Part shown: piece by piece, positions 23,913-62,715 of the stretch
Layout of the letters: the number at the start of each line of letters is the position of its first letter
How positions within the stretch are numbered: position 1 is the stretch's first letter
DNA from: an uncultured archaeon
GTDB taxonomy: Archaea > Iainarchaeota > Iainarchaeia > Iainarchaeales > GCA-2688035
DNA length: 64,000 nt
Reading direction: 5' to 3'
Assembly: GCA_964354805.1 (NCBI GenBank)
Contig: CAYHBD010000042.1
Location: 1 to 64,000, forward strand
Translations under genes and position numbers: made by a program
The notes under the pieces: generated by a model
Database searches by the model: none
Seen by the model: the letters and a program-made list of their open reading frames with translations, nothing else
What the model was told of the DNA's origin: nothing

Positions 23913-24390
23913 CCCCTGTCATAGTTTGTTGGTTGGGCTTTTGTTTTGCAGAGCAAAACTCTTTTTTCCCAAGGCTTTTGCACTGTAGTGCAAAAGGCTT
24001 TTGTTTTGCAAACGGCAATTCTTTTGCTTCCAGCGCTACAGGCGCAGTGCTGCTTTGCTCTATTCTGATGCATTTGCCCCTTGGGATAATTGTAGGCCTG
24101 CTGTTGCTGTTTTCAATTACCATCAGGTTGAATGAGTCGAAATCGAAGAATTTGCCTTCTTTGAATGAAACTGTGTTGGCTGTGTCGTTGTAGAAAACGC
24201 TTATCTCTTTTCCAAGTATTTCAAACAGCAGCTTGTCCTCCTTTTTGCCGTTCATTGCCCGCATTCTGAAGATTGCCTTGGTTGAACGCTGCGCTGTCAT
24301 TGGCTTGCCCCCTGCAATTTGAGGCACTGCCTTGGTTGAATGCTGAACGCTCATTGCTGTTCCTCTCCCGCTACTTCTATTCTTATGCAT
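23884..24390 (-). CDS. Sm/LSm-like fold protein (likely start ATG 24255) with a repeat-derived C-terminal extension
   Basis: LGKEISVFYND...FKEGKFFDFD...NLMV...IIPRGKCIRIE resembles Sm1/Sm2; paralog of 24351-24575. Confidence 0.55.
   Translation of the reverse strand: MHKNRSSGRGTAMSVQHSTKAVPQIAGGKPMTAQRSTKAIFRMRAMNGKKEDKLLFEILGKEISVFYNDTANTVSFKEGKFFDFDSFNLMVIENSNSRPTIIPRGKCIRIEQSSTAPVALEAKELPFAKQKPFALQCKSLGKKEFCSAKQKPNQQTMTGGAKIAAATR
23961..24000. repeat. Dispersed palindromic element, copy 1
   Basis: cttttttcccaaggc-ttttgcac-tgta-gtgcaaaag-gctt. Confidence 0.85.
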
Positions 24391-24575
24391 TTGTCTCTCG
24401 GGATGAGCGTTGGCTTGTTGTTGCTGTTTTCAAGTATCTTTAAATTGCTGTTGTCAAAGTCGAGGAAGGTGCCGACTTTGAAAGAAACGGATTCAAAGGT
24501 ATCATTATAGAAAATAGAGACTATTTTCCCCAAGCTATCGCTGAGTAGCTTGTCCTTTCTATACTCCACCAACAA
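24351..24575 (-). CDS. Small Sm/LSm-like fold protein
   Basis: 74 aa: LGKIVSIFYND...VGTFLDFDNSNLKIL...LIPRDKCIRIEV; SD-like GGGGG upstream. Confidence 0.6.
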   Translation of the reverse strand: MLVEYRKDKLLSDSLGKIVSIFYNDTFESVSFKVGTFLDFDNSNLKILENSNNKPTLIPRDKCIRIEVAGEEQQ

Positions 24576-24978
24576 CCCCCAACCAAGAAGGACGTAATAG
24601 AGAGGGCATTGCTGTATTTAATTGTTTCTTGGCTGTTTTTTTGGCGGAAAATCCGGGAATTTTGGCTTGTCTTTTGGAAAAATCCGGCAAAAAACAATTT
24701 TTCGGAAAAAAATAGCCAAAATTGCAGAATCAACCAAACATATAGAAAAATATATGTTTGGTTGATTTGAAAAAAAAGCAGAAAATTGATTAATAAAATT
24801 AAGATGCGAAATAAAAAAACAGAAAAAATTAAATTTGGGAAATTGAAGAAGAAGAATTTGAAATTAAATAAAACCCAGAGAAAGAAAACAGAAAAAGACG
24901 AATTGTTTGATTGTTCATCGCAGGCATTCCGAAGTGTTGCCCCCCAATCCTGCAATGACATCAATTGCTTTCCAATAG

Positions 24979-25884
24979 TCAGCGTAAGTATTCCAGCGTG
25001 TTGCTCCAGATGCCCGGGGTCATTGACGGGTCGTAGTTGAAGTAAACGACTTTTCCAATAAGCAGCCTCTTTTCAACTATTGCCGGGTAATAGGATGCTG
25101 TTGCAATGTTTTTGATGTATGCAATTATGTTTCCTGTTGGCTTTACGTCAAAGGTGATTATTGTCAGCGGCCCGTAAGCAGGGTCTGCCGGCGCTACTTC
25201 AATGCCCTCCATTATTTTGCTGTCATAGTCAACCCTGTGGACTTTTCCTGTTAAAACAATCGGCTGGACGCAGGTTGCCCTGTCGTTCGTGCCAATGTCG
25301 CAGTCTACAGGAATAATGTCTCTGAATGTTGCGCCCCATCCGATTACGTCTGATGCAACGCCTGTTCCGTAAATTCCGCCGCTCCTGTAAATGCCTGAAT
25401 CCATTACAACAACCAGCTTTCCGCCTGTTTTAACGTAATTTTCAATCGCTTCTCCAAGTGTCCTTGAAACGCTTTTCTGGTAAGGGTTTGCGCCCAAATG
25501 CTGGTCAAGCAGAATGACATCGTATTGGGCAAGCTGTTCCCTTGGTGCAAACTCTAGGCCTGCCGGCTCTTTTATCTGGTAATAAACAAGGTCTCTCTGC
25601 GTGTCCAAATCAGACATTAAATGAATGCTCGGCTCTCCGATTACAAGCATTTTAATCGGGCCCCTGTCCCCCAAAAATGGAATCTGCCATAGGCCGAACC
25701 TGTGGCCCAAAAAAGCGGCAATGATAATAATCAAAATCAGCGGGATTAATCCCTCGAGGTTTCTTGAAACAATAGAGCGCCTGCCTGATTGAGCAGGCAT
25801 TGCTTCAGCACCGCCTTCTTCAGGATACATTCTTTCAATCACCTTGTCAATTTTTTCCAAAATTGCTTTTAATCTTTTTCCCAA
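24979..25884 (-). CDS. Membrane-anchored protein with class I glutamine-amidotransferase-like fold
   Basis: TM helix, then LAQYDVILLD...IENYVKTGGKLVVV...GKVVYF; distant paralog of 26074-27078. Confidence 0.7.
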   Translation of the reverse strand: MGKRLKAILEKIDKVIERMYPEEGGAEAMPAQSGRRSIVSRNLEGLIPLILIIIIAAFLGHRFGLWQIPFLGDRGPIKMLVIGEPSIHLMSDLDTQRDLVYYQIKEPAGLEFAPREQLAQYDVILLDQHLGANPYQKSVSRTLGEAIENYVKTGGKLVVVMDSGIYRSGGIYGTGVASDVIGWGATFRDIIPVDCDIGTNDRATCVQPIVLTGKVHRVDYDSKIMEGIEVAPADPAYGPLTIITFDVKPTGNIIAYIKNIATASYYPAIVEKRLLIGKVVYFNYDPSMTPGIWSNTLEYLR

Positions 25885-25912
25885 GGCTTTTTTGCGGAAG
25901 CAAAAAAGGCTT
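25874..25912. repeat. Dispersed palindromic element, copy 2 (overlaps the predicted TTG start of 24979-25884)
   Basis: ctttttcccaaggc-ttttttgc-ggaa-gcaaaaaag-gctt. Confidence 0.85.
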
Positions 25913-26073
25913 AATTAATTTATTCAAATTAATCTGTTAATACTATTAATATTTGTTGCTTTTTCTCTTTTTAACACTTTCCTTTCGGGGAAAAAACTGC
26001 TATGCAATCTAAAACGCTTTTGTTATTTAAAAACCTTTCCTATTCTCTCCAAGCATCAGGGCAGGCTGTTTTT

Positions 26074-61532: not shown

Positions 61533-61536
61533 AAAA

Positions 61537-62316
61537 TCACCTTTCAAACAAAGTGCCGCTGATTTCGCCTTTGAAAATTTTAGCCAACAAACCATTGCCG
61601 CCTTTTGTAATAATAAGAGGTATTTTGTTATTTAAAGCAATATCCGCCGCCTGCAGTTTTGTTTCAAATCCACCCCGTCCTGCACTGCTCTTTCCATTTA
61701 CAACCGCGGCTGTCTTGCTTAAATCCCTAACCCGCTTGATTAATGAAGCCTTGCTATCGGTTTCAGGGTTAGCGGTAAAAAGCCCACCGACTGTTGAAAC
61801 CATGATAAGCAAATCAGCGTCCAAATTCACAGCCAATTTTGCTGCCAGCATATCGTTGTCAGAGAAATATCTTTTGCGCGCAAGCTCTTCAACTGCAACA
61901 GCATCATTCTCGTTTATCACAGGCACAATATTAAGAGAAAGCAGCTTATCGAGGGTGTTCTTTAGGTTTTTGAGGCTTTTTTTATCATCAAAATTGTCCT
62001 GCGCCAGCAAAACCTGCGCAATTAGCTGGTTATACTTTTCGAAGGCTGTCCCATAGCAGTGCATAAGATGGCTCTGCCCCACGGCAGCAAGTGCCTGCTG
62101 CATCTCAACAGGCCGAGGCGAGTTGTGCAGATGCGTTTTCTCAAGACCAAGCCCTATAGCCCCGCTTGAAACAAGCATAAACTGTTTTCCAACCCTGACC
62201 AGAGTGGAAATATCACGCGCCAAATCATCGATTAGCGAAAAATTAAACTTGTTGTCCCCCATAACTGTGTTCGTGCCAAGCTTTATTACAACCCGCTTTA
62301 CTTTTTCAGGATTCAA
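61537..62316 (-). CDS. proB: Glutamate 5-kinase (no PUA domain)
   Basis: VVIKLGT, VSSGAI, QALAAVGQ, AQVLL, PVINENDAV, SDND.LAA, GRGGF.TK. Confidence 0.92.
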   Translation of the reverse strand: MNPEKVKRVVIKLGTNTVMGDNKFNFSLIDDLARDISTLVRVGKQFMLVSSGAIGLGLEKTHLHNSPRPVEMQQALAAVGQSHLMHCYGTAFEKYNQLIAQVLLAQDNFDDKKSLKNLKNTLDKLLSLNIVPVINENDAVAVEELARKRYFSDNDMLAAKLAVNLDADLLIMVSTVGGLFTANPETDSKASLIKRVRDLSKTAAVVNGKSSAGRGGFETKLQAADIALNNKIPLIITKGGNGLLAKIFKGEISGTLFER

Positions 62317-62336
62317 TCAAACCACCACCGCATAGT

Positions 62337-62485
62337 TGGGGCGTCGAGGATTTGAACCCCGGTCGCTACCATGTTGGAAACCCTGTGTTTTCTTTCTTTT
62401 CCACAAGGGCTTTTCTTTCTTTTTCTAAAAGAAAGAAAAGGGCTTCCCCAAGGTAGAATACTAAACCAAGCTATACTAACGCCCC
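62337..62485 (-). tRNA. tRNA-Pro (GGG) with a 74-nt intron at 37/38 (62372-62445)
   Basis: GGGGCGT/ACGCCCC-A acceptor, CTACC/GGTAG stem, TT-GGG-G loop, TTCAAAT T-loop, BHB central helix TTGG/CCAA. Confidence 0.92.
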
Positions 62486-62588
62486 CAACTCGATTTGAAT
62501 CTTCTGATGCCTGTTTTCTTTTGACACAGCTTTTCACGCAAAGCCATTTTCTTTTGGTACAGCTTTTCTTTTCCCAAAAGAAAAGGTG

Positions 62589-62715
62589 TGAGGCTGCCCG
62601 GATTTGAACCGGGGTCGTATGCTTGTTTGAAAACACTTTTTCCCAAGGCTTTTTTCTGCAAGGAAAAAAGGCTTTCCCAAAGCATAAATCCTAGACCAGG
62701 CTAGACGACAGCCCC
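62589..62715 (-). tRNA. tRNA-Pro (UGG) with a 52-nt intron at 37/38 (62624-62675)
   Basis: GGGGCTG/CAGCCTC-A acceptor, TATGC/GCATA stem, TT-TGG-G loop, BHB central helix TTTG/CAAA. Confidence 0.92.
62636..62674. repeat. Dispersed palindromic element, copy 5, inside the tRNA-Pro(UGG) intron
   Basis: ctttttcccaaggc-ttttttc-tgcaag-gaaaaaag-gctt. Confidence 0.85.

Follow-up and report, generated by a model that had tools for sequence, protein, structure and literature searches.

The DNA element described here is, on balance, probably a non-autonomous mobile repeat of the Diapherotrites/Iainarchaeota, which has the layout of an intrastrand triple helix and makes or enlarges tRNA introns. It was identified in a stretch of 64,000 nt (referred to here as the window; contig CAYHBD010000042.1) from a DPANN archaeon of this lineage with a genome of 1.38 Mb (designated G000). 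Insertion of the element into DNA was shown directly, both in frame within protein-encoding genes (in either orientation) and within the loops of its own copies. No publication describing this family was found in the literature. The element thus offers a concrete candidate explanation for the origin of archaeal tRNA introns.

Copies of the element in the window and in related genomes

A first-pass annotation of the window had reported five copies of a palindromic element in a single orientation, at positions 23961, 25874, 28901, 56602 and 62636. All five were found to be exact, with the 15-mer TTTCCCAAGGCTTTT present without mismatch at 23965, 25877, 28904, 56603 and 62639, in each case on the + strand, while a partial copy with one mismatch was located at 56573. 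Six matches to TTTCCCAAGGCTTTT were obtained as compared with 0.96 expected, a number that was reached in none of 100 shuffles. The five core copies scored 50-62 bits with a covariance model (filters off). Three presumed variants (62396-62445, ~62562-62586 and, reversed, ~38426-38460) were shown by their layout or by the covariance model to be true relatives, and a degenerate copy was added to the catalogue, as follows:

23943..24002, + strand: copy 1 (59.6 bits)
25874..25913, + strand: copy 2, intergenic (61.9 bits)
28895..28948, + strand: copy 3 (core 28901-28941), a 54-nt in-frame insert in the isoleucyl-tRNA synthetase (IleRS) gene, antisense to that gene
28499..31420, - strand: IleRS gene, host of copy 3
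37983..38024, + strand: degenerate copy, absent from the first-pass annotation (CCCAATGG-CTTTTTTC...GAAAAAAG; E 0.005)
38424..38462, - strand: variant opposite in orientation to the five core copies (E 0.0017; fold z -6.6)
56601-56636, + strand: copy 4, intergenic, nested in the loop of an outer copy (within 56571..56651)
62337..62485, - strand: tRNA-Pro(GGG) with a 74-nt intron after position 37
62393..62447, + strand: interrupted-tract variant in the tRNA-Pro(GGG) intron (covariance model E 0.0016)
62546..62587, - strand: copy that belongs to a different subfamily (stem base CAGC/GCTG, linker TAC) and has the common tract layout
62588..62715, - strand: tRNA-Pro(UGG) with a 52-nt intron after position 37
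62636..62674, + strand: copy 5, in the tRNA-Pro(UGG) intron

Copy 1, which lies between a giant surface-protein gene and the next gene and is antisense to both, consists of a small hairpin (GTTTTGC-AGA-GCAAAAC, 23943-23959), a T-tract ending in CCC, an AAGG linker and the main hairpin, in that order, and is followed by a partial repeat of the small hairpin. Copy 2 had been described as overlapping a predicted start codon. This holds for the TTG at 25884 of the longest ORF, but not for the ATG at ~25830 of the minus-strand gene 24979-25830, which has a GGTGAT ribosome-binding site in front of it, is the likelier start and would place copy 2 ~45 nt upstream of the gene. Copy 4 occupies the spacer separating two + strand genes, and the arms of the outer copy around it are CTTTTTGC (56584-56591) and GCAAAAAG (~56640-56647). 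In the variant at 38424..38462 the stem is a perfect CAGCC/GGCTG, the linker is GCG, and the stem is mirrored by the third tract AAAAGAAG. The low score of the 62562-62586 variant (just 13 bits) is explained by its membership of another subfamily.

Across the 1.38 Mb genome, 51 exact 12-mer cores and 90 non-overlapping matches (E<0.01) were detected, i.e. ~90 copies. A covariance model recognised the element in 70 of the 141 genomes of the order, at 0 to >100 copies each. Among 23 genomes of the family, a 14-mer of the element was counted 0-116 times per genome, as compared with 0-1 for the reversed control pattern. Three subfamilies with differing linkers and a common layout were distinguished. 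An identical linker is shared by ~50 copies scattered over the genome and is found across genera. Of the intergenic copies, 37 run in the same direction as the nearest gene and 15 in the opposite direction. Tandem arrays and partial unit duplications adjoin many copies.

Hairpin structure and a third, mirrored tract

The hairpin repeat measures roughly 40-50 nt and the unit ~48-57 nt. In most units a GAA-loop mini-hairpin comes first, then a pyrimidine tract that ends in CC, a short linker and a long A/T hairpin in which a G.G mismatch is fixed. Folded as DNA, each core copy adopts the form AAG.C[stem]-loop-[stem]G.CTT, which contains a 1x1 G.G mismatch and has a folding energy of -9.8 to -12.5 kcal/mol (z -2.3 to -5.1). 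In an alignment of 34 copies, 98.9% of cells pair, the three inner stem pairs alternate among UA, GC and CG, and changes on both sides were observed in 30 cells as compared with 7.0 in shuffles (reached in 0 of 500). The loop, which had been regarded as free, is enriched for GAA, GGAA and GTGA.

A third tract, which had been overlooked in the first-pass annotation, mirrors the purine tract of the stem and thereby provides the layout of an intrastrand triple helix. The match between third tract and stem in mirror sense exceeded that of all shuffles (0 of 2000 in each of G000 and G016, a relative), although tracts within a subfamily are common by descent and the shuffle tests therefore overstate independence. 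Where tracts are interrupted at a spacing of 3 or 4, the third tract is never of the other spacing, with a few copies carrying a plain T-run instead, and asymmetric tracts agree with a mirror reading, not with a direct repeat. For example, in the variant at 62393..62447, which has two G.G mismatches, the third tract TTCTTTCTTTTCC and the stem tract AAGAAAGAAAAGG match at 15 of 16 positions in mirror sense. Moreover, in orthologous tRNA-Pro(UGG) introns from five genera the tracts differ, while the mirror is kept in each. In two genomes (G012 and G018) the third tract is tandemly expanded.

Since the outer tract mirrors the purine arm, a single DNA strand would be able to form a T.A-T / C+.G-C triple helix by folding back on itself, and the other strand would present the purine-motif layout known from the E. 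coli BoxC/TM-ECO repeats. Judged from sequence, the natural three-way covariation is evidence of selection on such a predicted triplex fold.

Insertion into protein-encoding genes and into copies of the element

Copy 3 encodes 18 residues of IleRS (825-842, TEKKPFLPKQKSLGKKSA) that are absent from all 21 family orthologues examined, confirming the reported in-frame reading as a clean insert and providing a direct comparison of filled and empty sites. A second IleRS insert, of 48 nt and in the opposite orientation, was found on a metagenomic contig from a relative (L054, 91-93% identical), at a site that corresponds to 29413-29452 in the window and is empty in this genome. An essential synthetase thus tolerates an 18-residue, repeat-encoded loop. 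Another protein of the host genome (G000:C8:22717-25593) contains a 19-aa insert that is absent from three genera. Nesting between the arms of another copy was observed for 5 of 86 copies, as compared with a null mean of 1.4 (3 of 500 shuffles reach 5). Together, the filled and empty sites in two proteins and the nested insertions bear out the earlier description of a dispersed, structure-constrained archaeal repeat family. Repeats of this kind also break assemblies, the chimeric contig L054 being an example.

Association with tRNA introns and tRNA 3' ends

Both tRNA-Pro genes of the window contain introns that fit the canonical bulge-helix-bulge 37/38 type, the 3' end of the intron pairing with nucleotides 32-35, and removal of 52 and 74 nt, respectively, restores both cloverleaves. 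In tRNA-Pro(UGG), this pairing is between CAAA at the 3' end of the intron and UUUG in the anticodon loop, and in tRNA-Pro(GGG) it is between CCAA and UUGG. As had been claimed, copy 5 accounts for 39 of the 52 nt of the former intron, where it begins at intron base 2 in tRNA sense, and the interrupted-tract variant makes up most of the 74-nt intron of the latter. ARAGORN assigned 62588..62715 to tRNA-Pro(GGG) with a 50-nt intron, yet the UGG anticodon and a 52-nt intron are favoured by the UAUGC/GCAUA stem (5 bp), G37 and intronless tRNA-Pro(UGG) orthologues. The element repeats were seen to hide tRNA genes from standard finders, as Rfam recovered one of three in the window and default ARAGORN none.

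In this genome, 14 of the 19 long introns have the element at their start, in a single orientation and at intron bases 1-2. Likewise, within 361 kb sampled from G016, 7 of 8 introns begin with it in one orientation. All element introns are located at 37/38. In the element-poor genome G010, introns are present in just 3 of 19 tRNAs. Within one genus (g5), four species have a tRNA-Pro(UGG) gene that lacks an intron, whereas the gene of the element-rich G016 contains an element intron; this difference may represent loss instead of gain. Furthermore, a copy lies 0-6 nt past the 3' end of 13 of 42 tRNA genes, in tRNA sense, where ~0.2 would be predicted from hairpin density. In the window this is exemplified by the member at 62546..62587, which starts 2-4 nt past the tRNA-Pro(UGG) 3' end in tRNA sense. 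At the same 3' position, tRNA genes lacking the element have plain T-runs. A duplicated 3' fragment of tRNA-Gly has one copy in its T loop. Whether a particular tRNA flank or intron is occupied varies between genera and also within a genus.

The first-pass annotation had regarded introns as safe sites. The element does fill tRNA introns, but this reading is too weak, as the fixed intron start and orientation, the copies at tRNA 3' ends and the turnover of introns within a genus point to targeting or intron creation instead of passive survival.

Model for intron gain and its alternatives

In the mobile-repeat explanation, the element would move as folded single-stranded DNA and would prefer or recognise single-stranded hairpin loops, such as the anticodon and T loops and that of the element itself, and stem ends, such as that of the acceptor stem. 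Insertions after tRNA position 37 would survive, and would create or enlarge canonical introns, because the splicing endonuclease and RtcB are predicted to remove them; genes for both EndA (G000:C11:9474-9734, a 198-aa frame) and RtcB (C9:56487-57794) are present. Insertion alone leaves the tRNA-specific 3' segment of each intron, which pairs with the anticodon loop, unexplained. A more far-reaching version, put forward tentatively, is that the element acts as an 'introner' for archaeal tRNA genes, in which folded single-stranded DNA enters exposed hairpin loops and, upon landing behind position 37 in a tRNA gene without an intron, generates a new canonical intron removable by EndA and RtcB. 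The A-rich third tract and adjoining bases might then supply the bases that pair with the U-rich side of that loop in the anticodon arm, and the triple-helix fold might be the feature recognised by the recombination machinery. If true, this version would provide the first identified donor and route for archaeal tRNA intron gain. As one repeat makes up the body of most long introns, was caught inserting into proteins and into its own copies, and varies in its presence in a given tRNA within a genus, intron gain is directly testable in this lineage.

The exact placement of copies just past tRNA cut points (position 37 and the 3' end) can also be read as that of a functional cis-element instead of a selfish repeat, whereby the T-rich tract, hairpin and mirror would act as a terminator, RNA polymerase roadblock or RNA-processing mark that is reused at the ends of protein-encoding genes. 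The constant tRNA sense of these copies, the plain T-runs that take their place elsewhere and the 37 to 15 co-orientation of intergenic copies are consistent with such a role, as is the ability of mirror-repeat purine/pyrimidine tracts to form H-DNA and to stall polymerases (PMC4666352). However, such a role would not be expected to yield in-frame copies in IleRS and another protein in both orientations, nested copies, variable tRNA occupancy even within a genus or copy numbers of 0 to >100 among relatives, and a T-run terminator within an intron would do harm. This explanation is therefore considered unlikely.

The remaining alternatives concern the means by which the mobile repeat would spread. 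No transposase, integrase or other enzyme was linked to the element in a survey of Y1 and tyrosine recombinase genes. A classical MITE, derived from a DDE transposase, would have terminal inverted repeats and a target-site duplication of fixed length; no clear terminal inverted repeats were seen in copies of the element. Candidate target duplications of 7-9 nt were noted for three or four copies (TTCCGCTG, ATTTAATC, TGATGCAAT), while boundary direct repeats of >=7 nt occur in 10 of 86 copies as compared with a null of 4.9, most of these being repeat modules.

Within tRNA genes, integrases classically use sublocations at the anticodon loop, the T loop and the end of the acceptor stem, and integron attC sites and the CTX phage attP hairpin are single-stranded recombination sites. 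By analogy, a tyrosine recombinase (host XerA or an integrase) might act on the folded hairpin of the element. This would account for the copies at tRNA 3' ends, for those in anticodon loops and for the one within the tRNA-Gly fragment, and would suit a conserved structure with variable sequence and a fixed mismatch. A XerA-like gene and a gene for a 435-aa integrase-like protein are indeed present, but neither adjoins the element or follows its copy number, and duplication of a core site is not consistently seen. This mechanism is considered quite improbable.

The first-pass annotation had instead proposed a REP-like element that a Y1 HUH transposase (RAYT or IS200/IS605 TnpA) moves in trans. 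The imperfect palindrome with its conserved 5' flank and fixed mismatch, and the GAA-triloop mini-hairpins and strand bias, which agree with a single-stranded DNA intermediate, are in line with this proposal, and two intact Y1_Tnp (IS200/IS605-type) genes were identified (G000:C35:614-967 and C13:1382-1729). Nevertheless, both are flanked by GC-rich hairpins unrelated to the element (e.g. CCGCACCC...GGGTGCGG), with no element copy within ~20 kb on C35 and none anywhere on C13. Y1 presence does not follow element copy number among the 23 family genomes, as illustrated by G001 (at least 28 copies, no Y1 match) and G004 (seven Y1 matches, just two copies). In addition, a conserved GTAG-type tetranucleotide is absent, the conserved flank being TTTTCCC-AAGG, and copies also occur outside extragenic DNA. 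The proposal did not hold up in this search and retains very little probability.

Spread without dedicated mobility, i.e. of hairpin- or triplex-prone low-complexity DNA by replication slippage, template switching or local duplication, as proposed for bacterial triplex-motif instability, would fit the tandem arrays and partial duplications, the expanded third tracts in G012 and G018 and the status of TM-ECO loci as rearrangement hot spots (PMC4666352), but is very improbable in view of the common linker and of complete units that stand alone at unrelated single-copy sites, distant from any other copy, as at the two positions in IleRS.

Comparison with known systems

Among the closest counterparts of the element are the BoxC, PIT and TM-ECO repeats, intrastrand triplex repeats known from E. 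coli and from other bacteria (Holder et al. 2015, PMC4666352). In both groups, three blocks follow one another on a single strand: a pyrimidine arm is separated by a loop from a purine arm, which a short loop connects to another purine block that mirrors it. Both are dispersed in tens of copies with sharp differences in copy number between close relatives, and have no associated transposase. By sequence symmetry, the element shows all three of the required blocks (arm, complement and mirror of the purine arm). However, TM-ECO repeats are bacterial, have G/C-rich 9-nt blocks and are always intergenic, whereas the archaeal element has A/T-rich tracts of variable length, a fixed G.G mismatch, a GAA mini-hairpin and nested copies, and is found within ORFs and tRNA introns and next to the 3' ends of tRNA genes as well; neither the TM-ECO consensus (CCCTCNCCC...GGGNGAGGG) nor its strictly intergenic location (PMC4666352) is shared. 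Intrastrand-triplex repeats would thereby be extended from bacteria to archaea.

Like bacterial REP/BIME sequences, the element is a short, imperfect, highly repeated and structure-constrained palindrome that forms mosaics with small modules, yet it lacks a RAYT gene flanked by copies and a GTAG-type tetranucleotide, is not limited to extragenic DNA and has the additional mirror tract. It does not resemble an IS200/IS605-derived miniature either, as the ends of the resident TnpA copies are unrelated. With Rickettsia palindromic elements it shares a palindromic nature and an in-frame location in essential protein genes, where it likewise appears to be translated as an extra peptide segment, but the Rickettsia elements are bacterial, measure 100-150 bp and have neither a link to tRNA introns nor a triplex layout.

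Eukaryotic introner elements and transposon-derived introns (reviewed in PMC11282704) are likewise small non-autonomous repeats that are tolerated in genes because the host splicing machinery removes them. Introners depend on spliceosomal mRNA splicing, whereas the archaeal element is predicted to depend on the bulge-helix-bulge endonuclease and RtcB acting on tRNAs, and its copies in ORFs, unlike introners, appear to be translated, not spliced.

Finally, transposed tRNA introns have been described for the Thermoproteales (Fujishima et al. 2010, as summarised in PMC4033280). According to this summary, related sequences serve as introns of many tRNA species within one lineage, as is the case here, indicative of rapid intron gain, but these similar introns are mostly at non-canonical positions and, within the scope of the summary, known only in tRNA genes, while those formed by the element are all at 37/38. 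The element family is present in spacers, in ORFs and in tRNA flanks as well, which identifies a donor that lies elsewhere than in tRNA genes.

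Copies of the element in the window

The five copies reported by the first-pass annotation were confirmed at their exact sites on the forward strand. The 15-mer TTTCCCAAGGCTTTT had six matches in the window (five exact and one with a mismatch, at 56573) compared with 0.96 expected, a count reached by none of 100 shuffles. When folded as DNA, each of the five copies was represented by AAG.C-stem-loop-stem-G.CTT with a single G.G mismatch (-9.8 to -12.5 kcal/mol), and scored 50 to 62 bits under a covariance model built from 34 copies from two genomes. The variants proposed alongside these copies were recovered by the same model, one of them weakly, together with a further degenerate copy.

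23961, + strand: copy 1
25874, + strand: copy 2
28901, + strand: copy 3, in the IleRS gene
56602, + strand: copy 4, nested
62636, + strand: copy 5, in the tRNA-Pro(UGG) intron
62396-62445: variant, recovered
38426-38460, other strand: variant, recovered
62562-62586: variant, weakly recovered
37983-38024: further degenerate copy, covariance-model match

Stem pairing was observed in 98.9% of cells of the 34-copy alignment, with both-sided changes in 30 cells versus 7.0 in shuffles (0/500) and with three loop-adjacent pairs alternating among UA, GC and CG; the covariation claimed for the stem is thus real by the alignment-shuffle test. Other parts of the initial description required revision: loops termed free were found to be enriched for GAA, GGAA and GTGA, the overlap with a predicted start codon was an artefact of choosing the longest ORF, and the single orientation held for the five window copies and for tRNA-associated copies, but not genome-wide. 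In an Rfam search of the window, no known RNA family spanned the element, and a single tRNA exceeded the gathering threshold.

A third tract mirrors the purine arm

The element, initially described as a palindrome alone, also contains a third tract that mirrors its purine arm. Read 5' to 3' in the + form, the full unit consists of a mini-hairpin (often present), a pyrimidine tract ending in CC(C), a (C)AAG linker, an unpaired G and the main hairpin, the latter comprising C, a T-tract, two to four variable pairs, the loop and the complement, followed by G-CTT. The mini-hairpin carries a GAA loop (GCCGAAGGC, GCGAAGC or similar with longer stems), and all GAA-triloop mini-hairpins lie on one strand; this type of triloop is unusually stable in DNA.

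Rather than being an arbitrary flank, the upstream pyrimidine tract complements the purine arm position by position in the parallel sense, and tracts interrupted by C/G separate such a mirror from a direct or inverted repeat (AAAAAGAAAGG with TTTTTCTTTCC, AAAGAAAAGG with TTTCTTTTCC and, in the window, AAGAAAGAAAAGG with TTCTTTCTTTTCC). Mirror association exceeded all 2000 partner shuffles, which ignore the common descent of copies, both in the host genome (G000) and in a 361-kb sample of its relative G016. Among tracts of spacing 3 and spacing 4, the third tract was never of the other spacing, being a plain T-run in a few cases. Orthologous tRNA-Pro(UGG) introns from five genera exhibited five tract patterns, with the mirror kept in each, and the three-tract layout was retained in one subfamily with a perfect stem and GCG linker and in another with a CAGC/GCTG base and TAYC linker. 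Copying cannot generate such a match; judged from the tract sequences, the mirror is the probable signature of an intrastrand triple helix, which would follow the pyrimidine motif on the + strand and the purine motif on the other.

Tandem expansion of the third purine tract, ranging from four to six copies (GAAAAGAAAAAAG..., GCGAAAAGATT...), was observed at two loci, a tRNA-Pro intron of G012 and the 3' flank of tRNA-Pro(GGG) of G018, where the tract resembles a microsatellite joined to the hairpin. Separately, the linker CCCAAGG, present at 62636-62674 and in all core copies, matches nucleotides 30-36 of tRNA-Pro(GGG) (CCUUGGG) exactly as their reverse complement, suggesting that the element may have picked up part of a tRNA-Pro anticodon arm.

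Host genome and family size

The G000 assembly (1.38 Mb, 44% G+C, 88.5% complete) represents a DPANN archaeon, with IleRS homologues named Candidatus Diapherotrites and Iainarchaeum. It contains 51 exact copies of the 12-mer core, and nhmmer at E<0.01 gives 90 matches that do not overlap. Across 23 family genomes, a 14-mer core was present 0 to 116 times per genome, versus 0-1 for the reversed control pattern, and the covariance model identified the element in 70 of 141 genomes sampled from the order, where the highest per-genome counts were at least ~50. The element family is therefore old, with a patchy distribution and copy numbers that differ widely. IMG/VR pattern scans for a viral or plasmid carrier returned zero matches.

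Association with tRNA introns and 3' flanks

With introns permitted, ARAGORN identified three tRNAs in the window and 42 in G000; standard finders missed tRNA genes across the whole window, with 0/3 called by default ARAGORN and 1/3 at the Rfam gathering threshold. Among G000 introns of at least 30 nt, 14 of 19 open with a family member immediately past the anticodon loop, invariably in one orientation, in which the tRNA-sense order is pyrimidine arm, purine arm and second purine tract. The G016 sample yielded an element start in the tRNA-sense orientation in seven of eight introns, and tRNAs of relatives (Val, His, Arg, Leu and Ser) carry element-start introns oriented as in G000. In the relative G010, which has one core copy, just 3 of the 19 tRNAs sampled contain an intron, and neither tRNA-Pro gene does. 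Rfam tRNA matches per genome are confounded by completeness and were excluded as a proxy for intron load.

Occupancy varies within a genus. In genus g5, tRNA-Pro(UGG) lacks an intron in G004, G018, G020 and G022 and contains a 69-nt element intron in G016 (116 cores), while tRNA-Pro(GGG) occurs in three states, i.e. intronless, with a 27-nt intron without the element, or with an element intron. G000 encodes the splicing endonuclease EndA (one 198-residue frame) and the ligase RtcB. RNA folding of plain-tract introns favours the last tract as partner of the first, which would bring the intron 3' segment beside the anticodon loop, matching the need for a bulge-helix-bulge substrate. We infer that element introns are spliced.

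Two further introns were observed. Within G000:C10:30692-32100, a tRNA-Ser-like gene uncalled by ARAGORN has an intron starting with the element (~C10:31920-31957); an integrase-like gene of 435 aa is located ~0.8 kb away. The tRNA-Ile(UAU) at window 32258-32377 (-) contains a 48-nt non-family intron with a C-box-like GUGAUGA, suggesting that this intron may be of guide-RNA type.

In 13 of the 42 tRNA genes, a family member starts 0-6 nt past the 3' end in tRNA sense, compared with ~0.2 predicted from hairpin density; one of these (62546-62587) lies behind tRNA-Pro(UGG), and the orthologous flank is empty in other genera. At G000:C16:22950-23147, a hairpin module lies behind tRNA-Gly(GCC) and precedes a 24-nt duplicate of the 3' end of this tRNA; one element copy interrupts the T loop of the duplicate, an arrangement that resembles the scar of tRNA-gene integration. 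A second repeat module, often adjoining the element, is a hairpin with a consensus-like archaeal BRE/TATA (AAACTTTATATG) in its loop, a possible mobile promoter cassette.

G000:C35:43640-43680, and at least seven other sites (C35:68541, C8:49887, C16:61962, C43:19628, C30:43050, C18:17823 and C47:26021): GTGGCA...TGCCAC module

Insertion into protein-coding genes and into other copies

The filled-versus-empty comparison proposed for ileS showed G000 to be filled and 21 family orthologues to be empty: the G000 protein has exactly one extra segment (TEKKPFLPKQKSLGKKSA, 54 nt, window 28895-28948), where the remaining orthologues read ...IV-SKTGK.... A metagenome contig from a close relative (L054), 91-93% identical in DNA to the G000 IleRS gene, carries a second, in-frame insert of 48 nt in the opposite orientation, encompassing mini-hairpin, T-tract and main hairpin, at a site (window 29413-29452) that is empty in G000. 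A 19-residue insert of similar composition, located in a low-complexity linker encoded at G000:C8:22717-25593, is missing from three genera. Each of the three ORF inserts is in frame and free of stop codons, which would fit translation better than splicing. No IleRS relative above 57% identity was present in the protein collection, and strain-level comparison therefore comes from two short metagenome contigs only; an exact protein look-up for close strains had no record of ORF 26074-27129. ORF-internal copies at G000:C30:16508-17563 and C8:1162-2646 had zero homologues in five relatives. Exactly within a repeat copy, L054 (Ga0315275_10129907) also passes, at 1512-2783, out of the IleRS locus into sequence that matches G000 C28, probably a chimeric assembly induced by the repeat.

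Five of 86 copies, including window 56601-56636, lie wholly between the arms of another copy, i.e. in its loop (null mean 1.4; five reached in 3/500 shuffles). If copies served as terminators, roadblocks or processing marks, their precise positions just past tRNA cut sites and their orientation bias would be accounted for, but this functional reading does not fit in-frame ORF copies in both orientations, nested copies or lineage-specific occupancy. Spread by slippage or duplication without dedicated mobility accounts for arrays and expanded third tracts, yet leaves solitary complete units within single-copy genes unexplained. An RNA 3'-end-protecting U.A-U triple helix (ENE-like) or simple terminator was dropped, because the T-rich strand is mostly antisense to its neighbours, and always so in tRNA genes, and RNA is not expected to form purine-motif triplexes (PMC4666352).

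Candidate mobilising mechanisms

For the element as a candidate mobile DNA family, the REP/RAYT transposase proposal of the first-pass annotation failed flank and copy-number tests. A TnpA/RAYT search of G000 identified two IS200/IS605-type (Y1) transposase genes, both solo and IS200-like, each bounded by GC-rich hairpins of its own. Among relatives, the number of Y1 genes does not follow that of element copies, with 28 cores and zero Y1 in G001 and just two cores and seven Y1 in G004; Y1 was rejected as mobiliser on the unrelated end hairpins and this mismatch. G000 also has genes for a XerA-like recombinase and an integrase-like protein, neither with any link to the element. Direct repeats at element boundaries were weakly enriched and mostly repeat modules, with three or four repeats of 7-9 nt left as candidate duplications, and 37 of 52 intergenic copies had the orientation of the nearest gene.

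The small 5' hairpin as an inverted, P-nucleotide-like target copy was dropped, as a few hairpins (GCCGAAGGC, GCGAAGC and GCAATTGC-GAA-GCAATTGC) recur at many sites, and the T-tract as triplex-chosen target DNA was rejected, as the IleRS and C8 inserts contain it and the empty sites do not. Insertion into hairpin loops, strand bias and conservation based on structure suggest that the intermediate would be folded single-stranded DNA, mobilised through a structure-specific recombination step.

Comparison with known systems

The literature searched contained no description of the element, nor of any DPANN tRNA intron derived from a repeat; in Thermoproteales, different tRNAs share related intron sequences (PMC4033280). 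The closest described objects are the bacterial intrastrand triplex repeats BoxC, PIT and TM-ECO, which have in common with the element their block order, dispersal, strain-to-strain variation and lack of a transposase, but unlike it are G/C-rich and confined to intergenic DNA (PMC4666352).
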